A stretch of DNA of 20,000 nucleotides from an uncultured virus (IMG/VR IMGVR_UViG_3300037419_002733) (taxonomy: Duplodnaviria; Heunggongvirae; Uroviricota; Caudoviricetes). Shown here piece after piece: positions 1 to 9,770 of this stretch. A program made the position numbers and the translations under genes. Each line of letters starts with the position of its first letter. Position 1 is the first letter of the stretch. The stretch lies in IMG/VR virus record IMGVR_UViG_3300037419_002733; one strand, given 5' to 3'. Below the pieces are notes generated by a model that saw nothing but the letters and a program-made list of their open reading frames with translations, was not told where the DNA came from and ran no database searches.

Positions 1-882
1 GTCGGGGTAACTGGAACTTATGGGGCATCATCATCTTCCAACTGCGGATGTAATTTCGTATTCAACGACAGTTTGCTGGATTTCAATCCAACAACGGGAT
101 CTTGGATCGGTCCGCTCAATTCCGGGATGCCAGATGCGGGACCGATCATGGAAATGGTCCTCGATTCCTCCTTGCATGGTTACTATTACGAATTAAGTTA
201 TAATGATTCGACCCAGAAATGGGACCTCAAGGCTCACGCGCCGGTCAATCCATCCGGCGGCAACAACACCGACTGTACCTTGATGCATACCTCATGGGCG
301 GCAGCAAATTGGAATTGCTGCGGCGTCAACAATCTTTCCACCTCGGAAAGCACGTCCTTTACGTCATCTTGTGCTATTGCTACATATAATTTGACCTTAA
401 CTCCTTACAGGTATTGTGCCCCAACCCCTTTCCAGATTCGTTGTGGCAAGTGCGCCCTCGCGACGAAAGTTCCGAATACGATCACTCTGCATACCCAATT
501 CGGCGCAGGGAGTACGTGCCAGGCGACCGCGTTGGCTGGGACATTCACGCTCCAAAGATACACGTCGATACATCCATGCCATTGGGTGGGGGACATTCCG
601 GCTTTGCCGAATGTGAAATGGGTTATGGGGTATACAGATCACGGGGTATTCGCCGACAGCATGGGATATATATATCCCACCGGGCTTGCCAACAAGTGGT
701 ATATTACTGCATTTGATCCCATGTCAACATATGTGATGTGGTGGACGATTTCTGATCAGGATTTCAATTGCTGTGCGGAGACCTCAGCCTGGGATCTTAA
801 TGAGAGTAATTTGTCCCCGTGTAACCCCGGTGTAGGGAGCATAGCCACTACAACTCCCGTAACCCCTACAGGATGCCATTGA
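1..882 (+). CDS. Cysteine-rich hypothetical protein, 5'-truncated by the window edge (possibly virion/tail-associated or extracellular)
   Basis: Frame 1 is open from base 1 to TGA at 880-882. About 15 Cys, two 'NCC' modules (WNCCGVN, FNCCAET), rich in Thr/Ser/Gly/Trp. Confidence 0.75.
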   Translation, partial: VGVTGTYGASSSSNCGCNFVFNDSLLDFNPTTGSWIGPLNSGMPDAGPIMEMVLDSSLHGYYYELSYNDSTQKWDLKAHAPVNPSGGNNTDCTLMHTSWAAANWNCCGVNNLSTSESTSFTSSCAIATYNLTLTPYRYCAPTPFQIRCGKCALATKVPNTITLHTQFGAGSTCQATALAGTFTLQRYTSIHPCHWVGDIPALPNVKWVMGYTDHGVFADSMGYIYPTGLANKWYITAFDPMSTYVMWWTISDQDFNCCAETSAWDLNESNLSPCNPGVGSIATTTPVTPTGCH

Positions 883-983
883 GGTCTGGCAATTTTCTCT
901 GGTTTTTAGTTTACAGGCTAAAAAGAACCGGCTATAGTAAAGGGAGACGATTGGAGTTACGTGTTCATTCAAAGGTGACCACC

Positions 984-2234
984 ATGGCACCGAGGGGCAA
1001 AGGAACGATGAACCATGTCGGAGAAGAATCGCCTAATGAATTAGAATCCTTATTCTTGAAGCAAGGCGAGGGTTCAAGCGTCCTTTCGTCCTATAGCGAC
1101 GAAGAGAATTTCCTGCGGCAGTTGTTCTGCGAACAGTCGGACAATCAACACCTTGCTCACATGATAAAGCAAGATGTTGCCGAGTGGGACATGAAAGCAC
1201 TCGATGCTTTCATGGAATTCTCTGATTTCGCTGCCAAGCAGGAGGAAGGTATACTTGTACCAGAAGTCGGCGAGGAAGTCAAGACCGATCCCAAGAAGTT
1301 TCCGCAAGTGAAGATCGACGAGGTAATCCTCGGTTATGCCGCCAATCCCGAGTACGAGAAGCTGATCAACGACCCGGCGACGAAGACGTTGCGTGATCTC
1401 AACGCCAAGATCGACGTATCGGCTGATCCGTATCGTCTCGGACAAGATGCGTGGAATCCGGCTCGTTGGCGATATGTCCAAGGAACCGCTCCTTGTGTCA
1501 GATCCGTCCGGACGCTTGAGACCAAGCAAGAGCAGGACGCAGGTACACAGCCTGAGGTTCGCCCGTCAACACCTGAATCTGTATCTCCCGTGAACGAGGA
1601 TGAGAGTGGGACCATTGATGAAACGCCAGGGGATGTCCCTGCGGATGGTTTCCACGACGAGTTGGAAGTTGGGAAAGGAAAAGAAATCATGTCGGCAAGC
1701 TTTGGTGAGAAGTCGCCTTCGTGGCACAAAGGCAAGAAATTCAGCATCGGGCTGGCGATGCTGACGGCATTACTGACGCTCGATTCGACCAACATGGTCA
1801 AGAGCGCCTCCTACGTCTGGAACGCGGTCGGCATCAACAAGCAGGTCGGCGACGGCAGCGACGGCTACGTGGCGTATAGTAACTATGTCCTTGCCCAAGC
1901 CGAGTACAACGCGGTCAAAAGCCAGTTCGAGAAGGTCGAGTCGACCTTGAAGGGCGAGGAACTATTCGACGAGGTCGAGAAGCTCCGCGATGCTCGGCAC
2001 CACCTGAAGGACGCGAAGGAGAAGTTCCTCAAGCAAGTCGGCGAACGCAACAACCTCAGCGCCGATGCGAAACACGTCGTCATGGCGGCGGCTCAGAATA
2101 TGGACATCCCCGAGAAGAAGGTGGCGACTCCTGAAACGAGGGACGGCGACTTCCCCCATGCCGGTCCTGAGACAAAAACCACCGCCGCGCCCCACGAATT
2201 CGATCCTGACGCGAAGGAAAAGAGCAAGAAGTGA
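984..2234 (+). CDS. Hypothetical protein with acidic region, one hydrophobic segment and C-terminal coiled coil
   Basis: ORF 873..2234. Likely start ATG984 (AAGGTG upstream) or ATG1008 (AAGGA upstream). Hydrophobic FSIGLAMLTALLTL segment. Followed by a terminator hairpin. Confidence 0.75.
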   Translation: MAPRGKGTMNHVGEESPNELESLFLKQGEGSSVLSSYSDEENFLRQLFCEQSDNQHLAHMIKQDVAEWDMKALDAFMEFSDFAAKQEEGILVPEVGEEVKTDPKKFPQVKIDEVILGYAANPEYEKLINDPATKTLRDLNAKIDVSADPYRLGQDAWNPARWRYVQGTAPCVRSVRTLETKQEQDAGTQPEVRPSTPESVSPVNEDESGTIDETPGDVPADGFHDELEVGKGKEIMSASFGEKSPSWHKGKKFSIGLAMLTALLTLDSTNMVKSASYVWNAVGINKQVGDGSDGYVAYSNYVLAQAEYNAVKSQFEKVESTLKGEELFDEVEKLRDARHHLKDAKEKFLKQVGERNNLSADAKHVVMAAAQNMDIPEKKVATPETRDGDFPHAGPETKTTAAPHEFDPDAKEKSKK

Positions 2235-2289
2235 TCTGACCTTTCCGGATCACCCCTTGCTCGATGTCCGAAGAGTCTGATGCCCTCTC

Positions 2290-2337
2290 AGAAACCCGTT
2301 GAAAACATTTGAAGGTTTTTCAACGGGTTTCTTTTAT
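2290..2337 (+). terminator. Rho-independent terminator
   Basis: 16-bp perfect inverted repeat AGAAACCCGTTGAAAA (2290-2305) / TTTTCAACGGGTTTCT (2317-2332), followed by a T-rich run, downstream of a stop codon. Confidence 0.8.
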
Positions 2338-2411
2338 TAGTTGTCGTTCTAACTTCTGCTCTGCTTAACTTCGTGCCGCGACGGCACAAAATAGCAAAAG
2401 GACAGCTAGGA

Positions 2412-3290
2412 ATGTCTCTCGATCAACTCAACTCCATGTCCAAGTTGGCTCAACTCGTCCGCAAGGCAGAAGCCAAGACCAAGGGCGGCAAGATCGAACA
2501 GGATCTTGCCGATGCCAAGGACCGACGCGCCAGGGCGATTTCAAACCTCCGAAAAGCCAAGACCTGCTTCGACCAAGAGGCGAGCGTCCTCAAGTCGCAG
2601 ATCGAGGAGTGCGATAAGGATCGAACCAACCTGGAACGGATGGTCAAGGATTTGGCGAAGTTCCGCAAGGATCTCTCCGCGAAGGAACGGGAGCAAGCCG
2701 AAGCCTTGGTGGTGAGTTCCAAAATGGAAGTGGACGCCAAGGAAGAGGCGACACGGGCGCGGTACGACGAGATCAGCAAGGCGCTGGCTGAGGCGAGGAA
2801 GGAAGACAAGGCTTCGAGGGTCGCCTACGAGGCTCTGGTGGAGCAAGCCAGACGGCTGGACCTCGATTCGGAATTGCTGACCGAGGAGAGCGACCAGGAC
2901 GTGGAACTGGCGCTGGGGCTGAGAGGAAGGCTTCGCTACCTGTCGGCTGAGATCGACCGCGTCTTCCCCTGCTACAAGGATATGCCTCGCGAACTCCAAC
3001 ACCAGCAGTTGGCAGTCTGGATGGGGTCCTTGAGGCACATCCAATACCTGTTCGAGACTTCTTTAGACCCGGAAGACCGTCCCGACCAGACGGACATCAA
3101 TGAGCAGCGAAGGCTGTTCCATCGGCTCAAGGACATTTCGAGCCACTACCAGCCAGGTCACATCCCGTCGTTCCAGCAGGCTTGGGAACCCGAGACGGAC
3201 TGGAACGAGTACATGCGGATCGAAGCCGATCGACTCAAGCGGTGCTACGCGGCAATTGCGACACGCGAGACGGCAGTCCCGGTCCGATGA
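2412..3290 (+). CDS. Hypothetical protein with long N-terminal coiled coil and helical C-terminal domain
   Basis: ORF 2373..3290; ATG2412 is preceded by AAGGA. K/E/A/R-rich heptad character over about 170 aa, then a globular tail (WMGSLRHIQ...YQPGHIPSF...DW). Confidence 0.8.
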   Translation: MSLDQLNSMSKLAQLVRKAEAKTKGGKIEQDLADAKDRRARAISNLRKAKTCFDQEASVLKSQIEECDKDRTNLERMVKDLAKFRKDLSAKEREQAEALVVSSKMEVDAKEEATRARYDEISKALAEARKEDKASRVAYEALVEQARRLDLDSELLTEESDQDVELALGLRGRLRYLSAEIDRVFPCYKDMPRELQHQQLAVWMGSLRHIQYLFETSLDPEDRPDQTDINEQRRLFHRLKDISSHYQPGHIPSFQQAWEPETDWNEYMRIEADRLKRCYAAIATRETAVPVR

Positions 3291-3313
3291 CCTGAGTCTG
3301 AAATTCCTGCCTT

Positions 3314-3383
3314 GTGAACTAGCCCCGACCCTTTAGGGTCGGGGCTTCCTATCCAACCAATTGCCTGCCTAAACAGGACTTAC
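3314..3383 (-). mobile_element. IS200/IS605-type right-end / TnpB omegaRNA-like scaffold remnant; the hairpin may also act as a terminator for the upstream gene
   Basis: Minus strand reads GTAAGTCCTGTTTAGGCAGGCAATTGGTTGGATAGGAAGCCCCGACCCTAAAGGGTCGGGGCTAGTTCAC. It has an 11-bp stem (3321-3331/3336-3346) and ends in TTCAC, the layout I recognise from IS605-family right ends. No tnpA or tnpB in the window. Confidence 0.5.
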
Positions 3384-3410
3384 TATCACTATAAAAGACT
3401 CAATGTTACC

Positions 3411-3439
3411 TTGACATCAATTGCTTAATATGGTAAATT
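3411..3439 (+). promoter_or_regulatory. Sigma70-type promoter
   Basis: TTGACA (3411-3416), 17 nt, TAAATT (3434-3439), with an extended TG. Confidence 0.65.
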
Positions 3440-3444
3440 CCTCC

Positions 3445-3830
3445 TCAGACTTCTTTATGGAGTTTGTAGGTCTAACTCAGTAAGCGAAAAACGACCACCA
3501 TAAAAATTCTCGTAATAGACAATTAAATAAATTATTGCTGACGCTTTGTCGATGTGGTCTTTAAGCGTGCTTCTGAATAATGCAAGCATATTCTTGCAGA
3601 TAGCTGTGCCCACTGGTTTACGTCGGACCAGCATTCTAGATGTGTGATAATTTAAATCCAGGCAACGTGTAACCTCACGACCTGGTGGGTAATACGAAAC
3701 ACACTGCTAGGACAGCTTAAGACTCTACCTTGATTTGGAAATTCGTGGCGTAGACCTAGAATTACCCATAAAGGCGACGGTCTATACTGAGAAAGGATTT
3801 TCAGATGCTAAAGCCTACCTTGTTAGCTTT
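3445..3830 (+). ncRNA. Candidate large structured non-coding RNA, class unknown
   Basis: About 460-nt gap without a credible ORF after a near-consensus promoter. Many nested and crossing complementary segments (listed in findings). G-U wobbles favour the + strand. Ends at a GCTAA..TTAGC hairpin plus a T-rich tail. Confidence 0.5.
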
Positions 3831-3905
3831 CGTTCTTGTCTACTACGCCGGACTCTTCTGTTACTTGGGTTGCGTCGAATTCTTCGCGTGTCGAGGGCAT
3901 CAGGA

Positions 3906-4109
3906 ATGATCTCTGTGGTCGTCATCTACCTGCTGATTGGTGTTGCCTGCCACGGCATCTTCGAGGGCGCTAAGTGGCTGGAAGATTGGTCGGTGATCTT
4001 GGGCGGCTACTTCAACGTCGCGTTGGTCCTGTGGTGGCTGCCCTTGCTCCTCGTCGATGTCCTCATGCGGATGACTTTCGATCGGTATGATGCCGTTGAA
4101 GAAGGATAA
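3906..4109 (+). CDS. Small membrane protein with two predicted TM helices
   Basis: ATG3906 is in frame with ORF 3735..4109. Hydrophobic segments MISVVVIYLLIGVAC and VILGGYFNVALVLWWLPLLLV. Confidence 0.6.
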   Translation: MISVVVIYLLIGVACHGIFEGAKWLEDWSVILGGYFNVALVLWWLPLLLVDVLMRMTFDRYDAVEEG

Positions 4110-4114
4110 GTTCA

Positions 4115-4801
4115 ATGACTGATTCCAATCTCAATCGTCGGGAGATGCTGAAGGCGACTATCGCGGGCGGTGCAGTCGCGACCACTCCGGTTGTGGCGAT
4201 TGCTGGTGCCTCGGTGGTTCCCATGGCTCCCTTGCTCTCAACGCCATTGATGACTCTCAAGGGAGTCGGCGAGATCCAGGTCATCGATATGATCCAACAG
4301 ATCATCTACATCAAGACCCTCAAGGGCAAGATGAAGTGGCTGAAGGATGGTGAGCTTCACCGTGACGATGGACCGGCAATCATCGAGCCAGATGGTACGA
4401 GGAGATGGTATCAAAACGGCAAGCTCCACCGAGAAGACGGTCCAGCCATCGAACGGGCTGATGGTATCAAAGAATGGTATCAAGCTGATGAGTTTCATCG
4501 AGCAGACGGACCCGCCATCGAATGTCCCAGCGGAGCCAAATATTGGTATCAGGATGGCAAAAAGCATCGCGAAGATGGACCTGCCATTGAGCATGCCGAT
4601 GGCAGCAAAGAATGGTGGTTGAATGGCAGGCGTCATCGCGAAGATGGACCAGCCGTCGTACACGCCGACGGCTATAAAGCGTGGAGCCTAAATGACAGAT
4701 ACCATCGAGTAGATGGTCCAGCCATAGAACGCGAAAACGGCACCAAAGAATGGTGGCTGAATGGCGATCTCGTTCAGGTTGAACTTGCTCCTAAACAATA
4801 A
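4115..4801 (+). CDS. HREDGPA (MORN-variant-like) repeat protein with twin-arginine-like signal peptide
   Basis: N-terminal LNRREMLK followed by a hydrophobic Ala/Val/Gly stretch. Six ~22-aa W-x-x-x-G-x-x-HR-x-DGPA repeats. AAGGA RBS upstream. Confidence 0.85.
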   Translation: MTDSNLNRREMLKATIAGGAVATTPVVAIAGASVVPMAPLLSTPLMTLKGVGEIQVIDMIQQIIYIKTLKGKMKWLKDGELHRDDGPAIIEPDGTRRWYQNGKLHREDGPAIERADGIKEWYQADEFHRADGPAIECPSGAKYWYQDGKKHREDGPAIEHADGSKEWWLNGRRHREDGPAVVHADGYKAWSLNDRYHRVDGPAIERENGTKEWWLNGDLVQVELAPKQ

Positions 4802-4888: not shown

Positions 4889-6718
4889 ATGGCTTCGTCG
4901 AAGCAGATCAAGGTTGGCGACAAGGTCCAAGTTCGACCCGATGTCGCCTGGAAAGAGCATTCGTATGCCAAACCCGGTTCACACCCGAGCACATTGTTCA
5001 CTTTGCGAGCCGGGGATGTCGTCAAGGTGGACACCATTTCCGCCTGGAACTTCATTAGTTTCAAGGTGTTTGGGTTTGAGGATAAGTTTGGTTTATATGT
5101 TTCCGATGTGATTCCTTACGAGGGCGACAAGGAATCGGTCGATGTCGACCCCTCGTTGATCAAGAAGATCGCAACGACGAAGGAGGATATCCCGTTCCAG
5201 TTCGCCCTGCTCGCTATGGAACACGGGGCATCCTCGCCGCAGGTCCACGAGTTCTACGACTTACACAAGTCGGATGCAGAGTTGGTCAAGAAATTCTTCG
5301 AGTTCACGCAACTCATGAATGTGTTTCAGACCAACGTTTACCGCGACCAGATTAAGAATCTGACGGAAGCGAAGCCAGAGAACAAGGTCCAGAAATCGGT
5401 CTCTCGGGAAGCGGTGCGAATCGCCCTGGAGAACATGACCGCTCAGGACGAGACCACGATCGGGACCTCGTCAGCGGCTCGGCTCTCGATCCTGATGAAA
5501 CATTTGAAATCGCTCAAGGAGGTATCGCAGGTCATCGATTTCATTTTCGATGAGATGAAAGAATCAGTCGAAAAAGTGATGAGCGAGGATGATTTGAATG
5601 GGTTTATGATCCCCTCGCTTCATCTGAATATGGATATGTGGCAGAAGATTGCGACCAAGTATCAGAAGTACCTGAAGGTTGCTCCATCATCTCCCACGGA
5701 ACAGCCGGTCTGCGAAACAGATGCCATTGGCACCAAGAGGTGGTATCTGAATGGACAACTTCATAGAGAAGATGGTCCAGCCATCGAATGTGCCAATGGT
5801 CGCAAGGAATGGCATCAGAACGGACAACTCCATCGCGAGGATGGTCCAGCCATCGAACATGTCAATGGCGATAAATGCTGGTATCTGAACGGACAACGCC
5901 ATAGAGAAGATGGTCCTGCCGTTGAATGGGTTGGTGGTCACAAGAAATGGTATCGGAACGGACAACTCCATCGCGAGGATGGTCCCGCTATCGAATGGGC
6001 TGGTGGTCACAAGGAATGGCGGTTGAACGGCAAGCAAGTCACAGAAGCCGATGTCATCAAGCCCAAGTCGCCCGAGAAGGAGCAGCCCGTCTGCGAAACA
6101 GATGCCGATGGCACCAAGAGGTGGTATCTGAATGGACAACGTCATCGCGAGGATGGTCCCGCCATCGAGCATTACGATGGAGGCAAGGAATGGTATCTGA
6201 ACGGACAACTCCATCGCGAAGATGGTCCTGCCATCGAATATGCCCATGGTTTCAAGCAATGGTATCTGAACGGACAACTCCATCGCGAAGATGGTCCCGC
6301 TGTGGAAGACCGTAACGGAGACCAAGAATGGTGGGTGAATGGAGAACGTCATCGCACCGATGGACCTGCCATCGAGAAGGTTTATGGCGGGAAATATTGG
6401 TATCAGAATGGCAAACGCCACCGGACTGATGGACCTGCCATCGAATGTGCCGATGGCACCAAGAGGTGGTATATAGATGGTAAGCTTCACCGCGAGGATG
6501 GTCCTGCTGTTGAATATGCTAATGGTTACAAAGCTTGGTATCTGAACGGACAATTCCATCGCGAGGATGGTCCCGCCATCGAATATGTCAATGGTCGCAA
6601 GGAATGGTGGCTGAACAACAAGCAAGTCACAGAAGCCGATGTCATCAAGCCCAAGTCGCCCGAGAAGGAGCAGCCGGTTTGCCTACAGATGCCAATGGCA
6701 CCAAGAGGTGGTGGCTGA
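4889..6718 (+). CDS. Large HREDGPA repeat protein: SH3/KOW-like N-terminus, helical middle, 11 in-frame repeats, frameshift near the 3' end
   Basis: AAGGA RBS before ATG4889. N-terminal IKVGDKVQV motif. Repeat blocks of 4 and 7 units separated by the linker KQVTEADVIKPKSPEKEQPVC. Repeat frame is lost at ~6683. Confidence 0.85.
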   Translation: MASSKQIKVGDKVQVRPDVAWKEHSYAKPGSHPSTLFTLRAGDVVKVDTISAWNFISFKVFGFEDKFGLYVSDVIPYEGDKESVDVDPSLIKKIATTKEDIPFQFALLAMEHGASSPQVHEFYDLHKSDAELVKKFFEFTQLMNVFQTNVYRDQIKNLTEAKPENKVQKSVSREAVRIALENMTAQDETTIGTSSAARLSILMKHLKSLKEVSQVIDFIFDEMKESVEKVMSEDDLNGFMIPSLHLNMDMWQKIATKYQKYLKVAPSSPTEQPVCETDAIGTKRWYLNGQLHREDGPAIECANGRKEWHQNGQLHREDGPAIEHVNGDKCWYLNGQRHREDGPAVEWVGGHKKWYRNGQLHREDGPAIEWAGGHKEWRLNGKQVTEADVIKPKSPEKEQPVCETDADGTKRWYLNGQRHREDGPAIEHYDGGKEWYLNGQLHREDGPAIEYAHGFKQWYLNGQLHREDGPAVEDRNGDQEWWVNGERHRTDGPAIEKVYGGKYWYQNGKRHRTDGPAIECADGTKRWYIDGKLHREDGPAVEYANGYKAWYLNGQFHREDGPAIEYVNGRKEWWLNNKQVTEADVIKPKSPEKEQPVCLQMPMAPRGGG

Positions 6719-7855: not shown

Positions 7856-7860
7856 TTTAG

Positions 7861-7889
7861 TTGGCAAAAGTCGTTCGACTTGGTATACT
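7861..7889 (+). promoter_or_regulatory. Sigma70-type promoter upstream of the CRISPR leader, with a palindrome in its spacer
   Basis: TTGGCA (7861-7866), 17 nt, TATACT (7884-7889), extended TG. Palindrome AAGTCG-TT-CGACTT at 7868-7881. Confidence 0.6.
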
Positions 7890-8150
7890 AAATGCTGGGA
7901 AATCAAGTACCTTTCCAGGATCAGAGAGTAAGATTGCCAAATTGTCTTAAATCTCTTTCAAAATAAGGACTTAAGGCTGAAAGTCCGAATCCCAGGTGCA
8001 TGATTCTTCGTAAGTTGTTCTTTGACAAGACGTTCTGGCTATGATGGCTCACGCCAATGCTTCATCTTATTGCCTTGTTGATGCCGATGAGCAAGATGCT
8101 TGAAAACCAAGTGTCTAAGTGGTTGGACATCAAGAGCTTAAGATGAGGCA
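7890..8150 (+). promoter_or_regulatory. CRISPR leader
   Basis: Non-coding and adjacent to the most conserved repeats. Three imperfect TAAGT...CTTA-type motifs at 7948-7973, 8011-8035 and 8116-8140. Confidence 0.65.
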
Positions 8151-9027
8151 GTGATCCTCATTCCACGCCCTAGAGGCGTTTAACACGACCCTAATACAGC
8201 TTGGCTGTGGGAGCGTATCTGGTGATCCTCATTCCACGCCCTAGAGGCGTTTAACACACGAGGTGCGGCGGATGTATGGCATCACGCACGAGGTGATCCT
8301 CATTCCACGCCCTAGAGGCGTTTAACACGCCCGGTGGCGCAGATCAGGGAGGTGGTCCTTGGATGGTGATCCTCATTCCACGCCCTAGAGGCGTTTAACA
8401 CCGAGAACATACCTTCGACGTGTACGCTCAATCACGGTGATCCTCATTCCACGCCCTAGAGGCGTTTAACACATGCATCTTCGAGTAGATGCCCTTGAAA
8501 TAGTGGAGTGATCCTCATTCCACGCCCTAGAGGTGTTTAACACATACCAAATTATTAGGATATTGCTAGACGAAGAAGTGATCCTCATTCCACGCCCTAG
8601 AGGTGTTTAACACTCATCCGGTCCGCGCGACACGACATCGGACGCGCCGTGGTGATCTTCACTCCACGTCTCAGAGGCGTTTAACACAAGCGGTCAGTTG
8701 AGGACGTCAACCAATAAGTTAACCTGATCCTCACTCCACGCCCTAGAGGCGTTCGACACAGGACGAAAACCAGGACGTCCGGCGAATTATGCACGCATGA
8801 CTTTCATTCCACGGTCTAAAGGCGTTTAACACTGTTGAGTTCGATTTCAAATGAAAGTAACCCTCACTCCACGCCTTAGAGGCGTTTAGCACACCAAGCC
8901 GGGAGGAATCGTGTGTTGGCAAGAGGGTGATCCTCACTCCACGCCCTAGAGGCGTTTAACACGGACCGCCATCGGAGTTGAAAAGCCTCTGGTGATCCTC
9001 ATTCCACGCTCTAGAGGCGTTTAACAC
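8151..9027 (+). CRISPR. CRISPR array: 13 repeats, 12 spacers, plus a degenerate 14th repeat at 9056-9091; no cas genes in the window
   Basis: 36-bp repeat GTGATCCTCATTCCACGCCCTAGAGGCGTTTAACAC starting at 8151, 8222, 8293, 8366, 8437, 8508, 8578, 8652, 8724, 8797, 8857, 8927, 8992. Unique spacers of 35, 35, 37, 35, 35, 34, 38, 36, 37, 24, 34, 29 nt. Internal hairpin ACGCC-CTAGA-GGCGT. Confidence 0.98.
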
Positions 9028-9062
9028 TTTGCGCCGCGTCCCTCTCCATCTAAGACTATCTC

Positions 9063-9770
9063 TCATTCCACACTCGAAGAGTGTTCAAACAACTGCTCAA
9101 CCCGCCTCGACTTCTCCCCCGTCCTATCCTTGATATCGGTCTTGGTCTCAATCTCCCATACACAAGTGAAATCCTCAGGAGCACTATACTCCGAGACCAA
9201 GACCGTATTCTCAACCGACCTCTTCCGCACCCATTCCCAGAACCGATCATGGTCGAACCGACCCACCGAATACCCCACCGTCCCCCGATAAGGAGGATCG
9301 CAGTAGATCAATGACCCGCTCGGCACCTCGACCTCATTGTAACCCCCGCACTCGAACCGCACATCCCCTAAGCCCATCATCTTCTTCTTCAACGAATTCC
9401 TGGCGTTCGATGCGTAATTACGACCAGTCTTGTTCCTAGCGTATCCGCCAAACCATTTACCACTGTTACTACAGCCGAAACCCACGAAGCCACGCAATGC
9501 CATGTCCGTCCCCGCCCGTATCAATTGATACTCCGACTCTGTGACCACAGCAGGCGGCTCCCAGCCCGTCTGTAACGCCCGCCACATCGCAATCAACTCC
9601 GGATGCAGGTCGCTCGCGATACGCATCGACCCACATACATTGCTCATGACCCAGCACGCACCGCAGAATGGCTCCCAATACGCCTGACCATCCCCAAGCC
9701 GCGAATTGATGTAACCAGCCAATTCCCGACAGACCTTTCCCTTGCCCCCGAAATACTGAATAGCGATCAC
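9063..9770 (-). CDS. dam: DNA adenine methyltransferase (Dam / D12 class N6-MTase)
   Basis: Motifs YFGGK, EPFCG (motif I), SDLHPELI and IYCDPPY (motif IV) occur in the expected order. 235 aa, GTG start. Confidence 0.92.
   Translation of the reverse strand: MIAIQYFGGKGKVCRELAGYINSRLGDGQAYWEPFCGACWVMSNVCGSMRIASDLHPELIAMWRALQTGWEPPAVVTESEYQLIRAGTDMALRGFVGFGCSNSGKWFGGYARNKTGRNYASNARNSLKKKMMGLGDVRFECGGYNEVEVPSGSLIYCDPPYRGTVGYSVGRFDHDRFWEWVRKRSVENTVLVSEYSAPEDFTCVWEIETKTDIKDRTGEKSRRVEQLFEHSSSVE

Follow-up and report, generated by a model that had tools for sequence, protein, structure and literature searches.

A conserved promoter-led non-coding module shared by two huge phages

Results

A module common to two viral records

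We identified a discrete, conserved non-coding unit without a catalogued family at positions 3409..3786 (+ strand) of the window, the 20,000-nt stretch of DNA analyzed here, which corresponds to G000:C1:46039-66038 (minus strand) of a 253,022-bp IMG/VR virus record (G000, estimated to be 43% complete). The unit consists of a promoter followed by ~340 nt of untranslated sequence and is shared with locus L005 of a second viral record, G001 (298,603 bp, estimated to be 59% complete), which was found by an exact-word scan. The explanation that we favor over the others, and still hold tentatively, is that 3409-3786 is a horizontally shared module made of a promoter and an untranslated RNA leader, or a non-coding RNA (ncRNA) derived from that leader. 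The module is probably functional.

Identity between the 2 phages begins at the -35 box of the promoter, and both flanks are unalignable, with 14/48 identical columns on the left (3380-3408) and 21/56 on the right (3787-3830). Within the module, 309 of 314 positions were identical in the segment 3409-3722 and all 26 in the segment 3761-3786, and the patch lying between them (3723-3760, 21/38 identical) was the sole strongly diverged stretch. The distance from the end of the module to the next start codon was 19 nt in G000 and 45 nt in G001, where that codon belongs to a Dam-methylase gene. The neighbors of the module in G001 are a divergently oriented gene upstream and this Dam methylase downstream, and the module stands there at the head of a methylase/polymerase operon.

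Such conservation is anomalous for this pair of records. The module was by far the strongest of 10 blastn high-scoring segment pairs between G000 and G001 (94% over 385 nt) and is single-copy in each of them. Among the parts of the 2 genomes that are present, 15 of 290 G000 open reading frames (ORFs) of at least 100 aa had any tblastn match in G001, the 9 matches with at least 60% coverage had a median identity of 29%, and the whole 20-kb window gave three short matches only. The five differences in 3409-3722 comprised three in the promoter spacer (3418, 3420, and 3423) and two at 3518-3519, which corresponds to 3/17 spacer positions vs 2/278 transcribed positions up to 3722 (Fisher p = 0.0015). 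This uneven divergence argues for purifying selection on the transcribed part. The 2 versions of the variable patch fold differently, with folding z-scores of +0.58 in G000 and -1.90 in G001. The patch was also considered as a guide-like element and rejected, as it had no significant match elsewhere in G000 or G001 (best, a 14-nt word at E 0.057).

A second non-coding repeat family (95-180 nt, 82-92% identity) is also common to the 2 records, with copies at G000:86657-86752, 123047-123228, and 236712-236852 and at G001:65917-66097 and 139077-139211. Its members contain hairpins, and in at least one pair, the change from C-G to T-A between copies is compensatory; no Rfam match was obtained at E <= 1. 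The pattern of this family matched 4 other viral contigs, all unrelated.

Promoter and coding capacity

A sigma-70-type promoter was identified at 3411..3439 (+ strand), with TTGACA at 3411-3416, a 17-nt spacer, TAAATT at 3434-3439, and an extended -10 TG at 3431-3432. With a score of 10/12, it is near consensus and bears out the promoter that an initial annotation of the stretch had proposed. Both hexamers and the TG are identical in G001, and the predicted transcription start lies at ~3446-3448. An A+T-rich stretch follows at 3499-3535, 50-90 nt past the promoter.

The initial annotation had described the sequence after the promoter as a gap free of ORFs. This holds for the + strand, on which stop-free frames within 3400-3800 span at most 38 codons and ORFs that have a start codon encode at most 33 aa; because G000 carries a tRNA with a CTA anticodon, the frames were also read with TAG as a sense codon, and still no longer frame appeared. 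It does not hold for the minus strand, where a 59-aa ORF at 3455..3634 had been overlooked, in a frame that is stop-free for 83 codons. This ORF lacks family, ribosome-binding site (RBS), or promoter support and is probably no gene.

We found no terminator-like sites in window 3000-4300 or in G001 locus L005 1100-1750. With no terminator at the 3' end of the module, the RNA may be no more than a 5' leader of the genes that follow. The layout is leader-like: a stem-loop likely ending the upstream operon is followed by the promoter, with no terminator-like site before the downstream genes in either phage.

Folding and comparison with known RNA families

No match to Rfam 15 at gathering thresholds was found in the whole 20-kb window, among families including raiA, ROOL, GOLLD, OLE, 6S, RNase P, tmRNA, group I/II introns, riboswitches, and ribozymes. 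At E <= 10 on 3250-3950, 4 weak matches were obtained, all in 3264-3407 (the stem-loop region) and none in 3445-3830, and ARAGORN called no tRNA or tmRNA gene in the loci covering the window. The earlier remark that hallmarks of tmRNA, RNase P, and group II introns are absent thus stands, and the Rfam check put forward with it returned no family for the stretch.

The initial annotation had further taken 3445-3830 for a large, pseudoknotted ncRNA dense in complementary pairs. The complementary strings themselves are real: all 18 of the longer ones were present exactly where they had been placed, as were CTGGT/ACCAG, CCAGG/CCTGG, CGTG/CACG, CTAG, and GTGTG/CACAC. Their density was only mildly above that of dinucleotide shuffles, with 31 complementary pairs vs 19.9+-6.0 at k = 6 (reached by 27/500 shuffles) and 4 vs 1.3+-1.5 at k = 8 (40/500); the counts at k = 5 and k = 7 were reached by 12/500 and 29/500 shuffles, respectively. 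Compared with 655 windows of G000, the density was ordinary, as 15.6-24.3% of them reached these counts.

The minimum free energy (MFE) computed with RNAfold told the same. For 3445-3830, the MFE z-score was -1.70 on the + strand (5/100 shuffles as good) and -2.04 on the minus strand (3/100), and for 3445-3790, it was -2.20 and -1.99, respectively. These values are not distinct from the background of 38 evenly spaced 346-nt windows of the genome (mean z -1.70, sd 2.2), of which 15 had z <= -2.2 and 16 had z <= -1.7, so the proposed comparison with shuffles did not set the element apart. Four of the 38 sampled windows fold much better than the flagged element (z -5.9 to -7.6), at G000 ~29000, 35500, 100500, and 224000 (L007:9000-9346, L007:15500-15846, L011:500-846, and L017:4000-4346); repeats, palindromes, or real RNA structure could each be the cause.

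Among the folds examined, the only locally outstanding one was a hairpin at 3446..3466 (+ strand), at the 5' end of the predicted RNA, with 8 bp including two G.U pairs and a UUUAU loop (-8.2 kcal/mol, z -3.23, 0/200 shuffles as good). It is strand-specific: because two of its pairs are G.U, it collapses on the minus strand (-0.2 kcal/mol, z +0.63). The hairpin CCAGG..CGTG/CACG..CCTGG at 3657..3685 (+ strand) is kept in the third lineage described below and had, folded alone, z -1.64 (14/200 shuffles as good). The sub-domains 3484-3570, 3655-3700, and 3716-3762 (the patch) had z-scores of -0.44, -1.64, and +0.58 when folded alone.

We compared the proposed helices between lineages using RNAalifold on the 2 full sequences (94% identical), which gave 95 nested pairs, together with one partial third sequence. 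None of the 95 predicted pairs was altered on both sides, so the covariation that the initial annotation had named as a check was not seen in this set. The helix ATAGAC/GTCTAT (3515-3520/3780-3785) is one pair short in G001, where 3518 G>A stands opposite C, and in the third lineage, the deletion at 3519 interrupts it. In G001, CTCAGTA/TACTGAG is weakened by a single mismatch and a single wobble, and the 3' arm of this helix runs past the end of the conserved block at 3786. For TAGGTCTA/TAGACCTA, 6-7 pairs are possible in G001 with the partner shifted. The remaining listed helices do not vary between the sequences and so are uninformative. A predicted hairpin at 3512-3518/3532-3538 carries a one-sided change in each relative, namely 3517 A>G in the third lineage and 3518 G>A in G001. 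Both changes leave a G.U pair, though only on the + strand; these wobble-preserving changes are a weak hint in favor of a + strand RNA.

A fold drawn from a single sequence is no evidence of conserved structure, as the cited part of one source puts it (PMC8250186). The case made here rests on conservation and not on the drawn fold, because the density of the pairs picked out by eye does not exceed that of other parts of the genome. Judged by folding energy, pair density, and the few differences between the lineages, including the broken and weakened long-range helices, the large pseudoknotted fold is not upheld. Of the proposal of a structured phage RNA of an undescribed class, what survives is the promoter-led non-coding unit, conserved and without an Rfam family.

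A third lineage and the search for further carriers

Words of the element were found in 9 soil or rhizosphere metagenome runs, of which 4 were aligned at 80% likeness. Most of the pieces recovered are of the G000 or G001 type, because their loose ends equal the G001 flanks. A third, diverged copy was identified in a 2,206-nt Logan contig from a soil metagenome (record 8, run X6), which aligns to 3484-3567 and 3657-3685. In the block 3484..3567 (+ strand), this copy scored 8 other letters and 3 gaps, and its listed changes all fall in 3510-3527 (substitutions at 3517, 3521, 3526, and 3527; insertions after 3510 and 3512; deletion at 3519), with no listed difference in 3484-3509 or 3528-3567. 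It has 2 differences in 3657-3685, carries 102 other letters in place of window 3568-3656, and is unlike the window beyond both sides. Judged from this alignment, 3484-3509, 3528-3567, and the hairpin at 3657-3685 appear to be conserved across a deeper split, and the segment between them appears replaceable. One further piece (X9 record 13, aligning to 3500-3536 with 7 differences and A+T-rich) was excluded as probably spurious.

Three lineages only were found to carry the element, namely G000, G001, and the third-lineage contig. There was no match to the element in phage GenBank records (blastn, distant mode) or in plasmids. An exact 20-mer was present in G001 only among viral contigs; 20-mer searches gave 2 loci in metagenome contigs (both unrelated G+C-rich sequence) and 1 locus in the genomes of 185,579 species, where the match was limited to the word. 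A 16-mer from the three-lineage block hit 37 loci in viral contigs, and beyond the word, only the copies in G001 and in a further record, G002, align. Searches through the flanking genes led from the upstream 305-aa protein to G002 only and from the downstream 67-aa protein to none, and a search with the G001 Dam methylase returned identical copies only. Using Dam together with its four closest relatives (55-66% identity), we obtained 80 loci, none with the element (nhmmer, best E 2.3); whole-record searches found it in 0/5 Dam-related phage records (four of them >230 kb; best E 0.14) and in 0/4 other records. We found no description of such an element in the literature, where text searches cannot find a sequence.

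Gene neighborhood and source record

The upstream gene (2373-3290) encodes the 305-aa product and stops at 3290. A G+C-rich stem-loop, read from the sequence, lies 32 nt past this stop at 3322..3345 (+ strand), with a 10-bp stem and a TTTA loop. It is likely the terminator of the upstream operon; the consensus scan did not call it a terminator (no T-run). A 53-nt repeat at 3313-3365 holds this terminator-like stem-loop, and its second copy (87% identity) lies at G000:148330-148382 and occurs in G002 as well.

The next convincing genes after the promoter are two small hydrophobic-protein genes on the + strand, at 3805-3909 (34 aa) and 3906-4109 (67 aa), which overlap at ATGA. The sequence AAAGGA precedes the first ATG (3805) by 7 nt, with the Shine-Dalgarno sequence at 3793-3798. 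The 67-aa product had weak PHROG matches alone (E 0.007). After these small membrane proteins, the genes at 4115-4801 and 4889-6718 encode MORN/DUF6745-type repeat proteins, the first with an N-terminus resembling a twin-arginine translocation (TAT) signal, and a third protein of this type is encoded at G000:1966-3123.

The gene content of G000 includes ~34 tRNA genes, class I aminoacyl-tRNA synthetases, GatB, RNA ligase, RlaP, a Ro60-type protein, and DnaJ. From the record length, completeness, and gene content, G000 is therefore a fragment of a very large phage. Of the phages on deposit, a 595-kb uncultured one comes closest, with one protein matched at 33.5% identity over 35% of its length. 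Genes for a Ro60-vWA protein, an RlaP-family nucleotidyltransferase, and a T4-type RNA ligase were located at G000:185976-187598, 171317-172342, and 121262-122356, respectively, and suggest an RNA-repair or Y-RNA-type system in this phage. The tRNA with the CTA anticodon, which reads TAG, lies at L011:18149-18222 beside a bank of ~33 other tRNA genes (L015-L017). Among 138 long frames, TAG served as the stop in 12, TGA in 77, and TAA in 49, and partial reassignment or suppression of TAG may occur in this phage.

A CRISPR array was identified at window 8151-9092, with ~14 repeats of 36 nt, spacers of 24-38 nt, and a 5-bp hairpin near the 3' end of the repeat. The repeats degenerate towards 9092, so that the leader probably lies at 7856-8150, on the opposite side. 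None of the 13 array spacers matched G001 or the element at E <= 0.001, and in G000, they matched only themselves; one 15-nt G001 word reached E 0.006. An ORF of 924 aa that has a C2c1/Cas12 RuvC-like domain (Pfam E 5.5e-15) starts ~10.8 kb away from the array and runs from 19938 past the window end (G000:43327-46101, minus strand). Strong complementarity to the CRISPR repeat was also found at G000 ~107.3 kb and ~99.8 kb (-59 and -48 kcal/mol vs a background of ~-24), and these sites may be further repeat copies or mini-arrays.

Discussion

A shared leader as the favored explanation

If the module is a shared promoter and leader, host RNA polymerase would start at the sigma-70 promoter near 3446-3448, and the transcript would open with the stabilizing 5' hairpin and continue with ~340 nt of near-invariant untranslated RNA. 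Transcription would then run on, with no terminator in the way, into the downstream genes, which are the small membrane proteins in G000 and Dam methylase and polymerase genes in G001. The RNA, either as the leader itself or after release of a fragment from the leader, would work on a host component, which may be RNA polymerase, a defense protein, or an RNA-binding protein. We infer RNA, and not DNA, as the active form and a host factor as the target: with unlike genes downstream and hardly any proteins in common between the carriers, a host component is the most plausible partner.

Two kinds of known phage unit resemble this arrangement in part. Phage morons are independent, promoter-bearing transcription units between phage genes, with a protein gene and usually a terminator. 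The module is likewise a self-contained, promoter-led unit in differing neighborhoods of unrelated phages, but it has neither a protein gene nor a terminator. The put sites of phage HK022 span ~70 nt each. In the part of the source cited, putRNA is a nascent, cis-acting antitermination RNA that acts alone on host RNA polymerase (PMC9378689). The likeness is that of a phage RNA element downstream of an early promoter and is an analogy of logic only; a similar independence from phage proteins would explain sharing between phages with only the host in common. The module differs in being much longer than put and in having no Rfam match of any kind in 3445-3830.

Several observations weigh against the shared leader. 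As G000 (43%) and G001 (59%) are fragments, the statement that they are almost unrelated holds for their present parts only. The near-identity of the module may reflect recent transfer between co-occurring phages, and a recombination mosaic with older edges could look similar, given that the differences are concentrated toward the left edge and in a single patch. Neither folding energy nor pair density stands out within the G000 genome, compensatory changes were absent from the predicted pairs, and none of the 9 runs with element words was an RNA run (0/9). An attenuator or riboswitch-type leader finds no intrinsic terminator or RBS-masking helix inside the element, and the conserved sequence, with its end at 3786, stops short of the Shine-Dalgarno sequence (3793-3798); attenuation and RBS masking thus lack visible parts, because the conserved block ends before the RBS and no terminator is seen. 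The unrelated downstream genes likewise argue against a gene-specific regulator.

Alternative explanations

It is possible, and clearly less probable than the shared leader, that the module is a stand-alone, trans-acting RNA gene of a new class, an intricately folded, pseudoknotted "ornate" phage RNA whose 3' end is made by processing. Its own strong promoter and 5' hairpin, the ~340 nt without an ORF, and the lack of an Rfam family all suit such a gene, and a near-invariant core in unrelated phages with differing gene neighborhoods suits a function independent of the neighbors. The variable patch and the replaced segment 3568-3656 resemble swappable peripheral domains. On the other side, the z-scores and pair counts are ordinary for the genome, the sub-domains 3484-3570 and 3655-3700 are not significant alone, the 95 pairs show no compensatory change, both relatives break ATAGAC/GTCTAT, and CTCAGTA/TACTGAG pairs less well in G001. 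There is also no terminator or defined 3' end, and three lineages were found rather than a large family. GOLLD, ROOL, raiA, and OLE are described, in the parts of the sources cited, as large orphan "ornate" RNAs often linked to phages or prophages (bioRxiv 10.1101/2024.12.08.627333, PMC5737381). The module shares with them a long, conserved, ORF-free and non-coding stretch, often phage-borne, and a job that is unknown. It has no match to their Rfam models even at E <= 10, and those families show abundant covariation, in contrast to 0/95 pairs here.

Somewhat less probable again, and in our view unlikely, is that 3409-3786 is a DNA-level element or neutral DNA recently moved between co-infecting phages, either as a shuffling cassette or as an R-loop, transcription-primed origin using the A+T-rich segment 3499-3535. 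In favor of these readings are the position of this segment 50-90 nt past the promoter, that of the module at the head of a methylase/polymerase operon in G001, the arrangement of stem-loop and promoter, with the stem-loop repeated elsewhere in the genome, and the 98-100% identity outside one patch, as after recent exchange. G001 and G002, the latter identical to the window over 1-3646, share an IMG/VR numeric prefix, and the element is present in soil and rhizosphere metagenome runs.

The PeSL elements of T4-like phages are the nearest known cassettes of this kind; they occur in multiple copies within a genome and act as recombination points. The module resembles them in being a non-coding cassette with a promoter next to a stem-loop (3322-3345, itself repeated once in the genome) that sits where neighboring genes differ between phages. 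It differs in its size (378 bp, with ~340 transcribed, conserved bases), in being single-copy, and in that the part shared with G001 starts at the promoter and not at the stem-loop. As portrayed in the portions of the literature cited, PeSLs are small composite terminator/early-promoter cassettes exchanged between otherwise unrelated sequence (PMC4122927, PMC2839356). Neither putRNA nor PeSL is a homologue of the module.

Other observations speak against a DNA-level element and against neutral exchange. The third lineage conserves the element block by block amid replaced sequence, which therefore points to selection over a longer time, and the divergence between G000 and G001 is significantly uneven. 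Each genome holds one copy, unlike shuffling cassettes, and inspection showed no terminal inverted repeats at 3409 or 3786 and no flank or target duplication, as would mark a transposon or a miniature inverted-repeat transposable element (MITE); no iterons or direct repeats were seen. The 5' hairpin and the wobble-preserving changes are strand-specific. The block-wise conservation and the strand-specific features are harder to reconcile with readings at the level of DNA or of neutral exchange than with the favored module.

Coding constraint from a small minus-strand gene (3634 to 3455, 59 aa) is a very improbable source of the conservation. In G000 and G001 alike, the ORF stays open, with a single V-to-A change between them, in the frame already noted as stop-free for 83 codons. 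However, its product had no Pfam or PHROG match and one relative, the 98% identical G001 copy, in a clustered collection of 5.8 billion proteins, and six degenerate peptide patterns matched 0/416 candidate stretches in metagenome contigs and, among viral contigs, 2 loci in the same two phages. Neither a Shine-Dalgarno sequence (by inspection) nor a minus-strand promoter-like site precedes the ORF. In the third lineage, a net +1 indel falls within the ORF, together with 26- and 40-nt runs (3484-3509 and 3528-3567) without listed change beside heavily diverged sequence, and the conserved module reaches 150 nt past the ORF on one side.

A trans-activating CRISPR RNA (tracrRNA)-like partner of the phage's own array (8151-9092) and of the Cas12-like gene from 19938 is the least credible reading: the array lies 4.4 kb downstream on the same strand, the Cas12-like 924-aa ORF stands at the window end, and G001 has a 74% match to repeat-spacer sequence, but the element holds no anti-repeat, its best duplex with the repeat (-17.5 kcal/mol) is equaled or exceeded by 164/169 random genome windows (mean -24.4, sd 4.1), 64 kb separates the element from the repeat-like match in G001, and the repeat carries, by inspection, its own 3' hairpin, a trait of tracr-independent type V systems.

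Implications

The shared promoter and leader, or an ncRNA derived from it, is thus the explanation retained here. In a bolder version, which we regard as doubtful, the module would represent a new class of host-directed phage RNA, an early ~340-nt transcript with a near-invariant core that unrelated soil phages of >500 kb would trade among themselves and that would act on a shared host machine, by reprogramming RNA polymerase or as a defense decoy; the 38-nt patch and 3568-3656 would then be lineage-specific add-ons.

The unit is small and can be synthesized, and its promoter is recognizable, so that promoter activity, transcript ends, and downstream read-through are directly testable. Giant phages have been studied almost wholly through their proteins. 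That the best-conserved DNA between two giant soil phages with few shared genes is non-coding would point to a function at the level of RNA or DNA that needs only a common host. Such functions, including transcription takeover, anti-defense decoys, and replication priming, are hard to find by protein homology.

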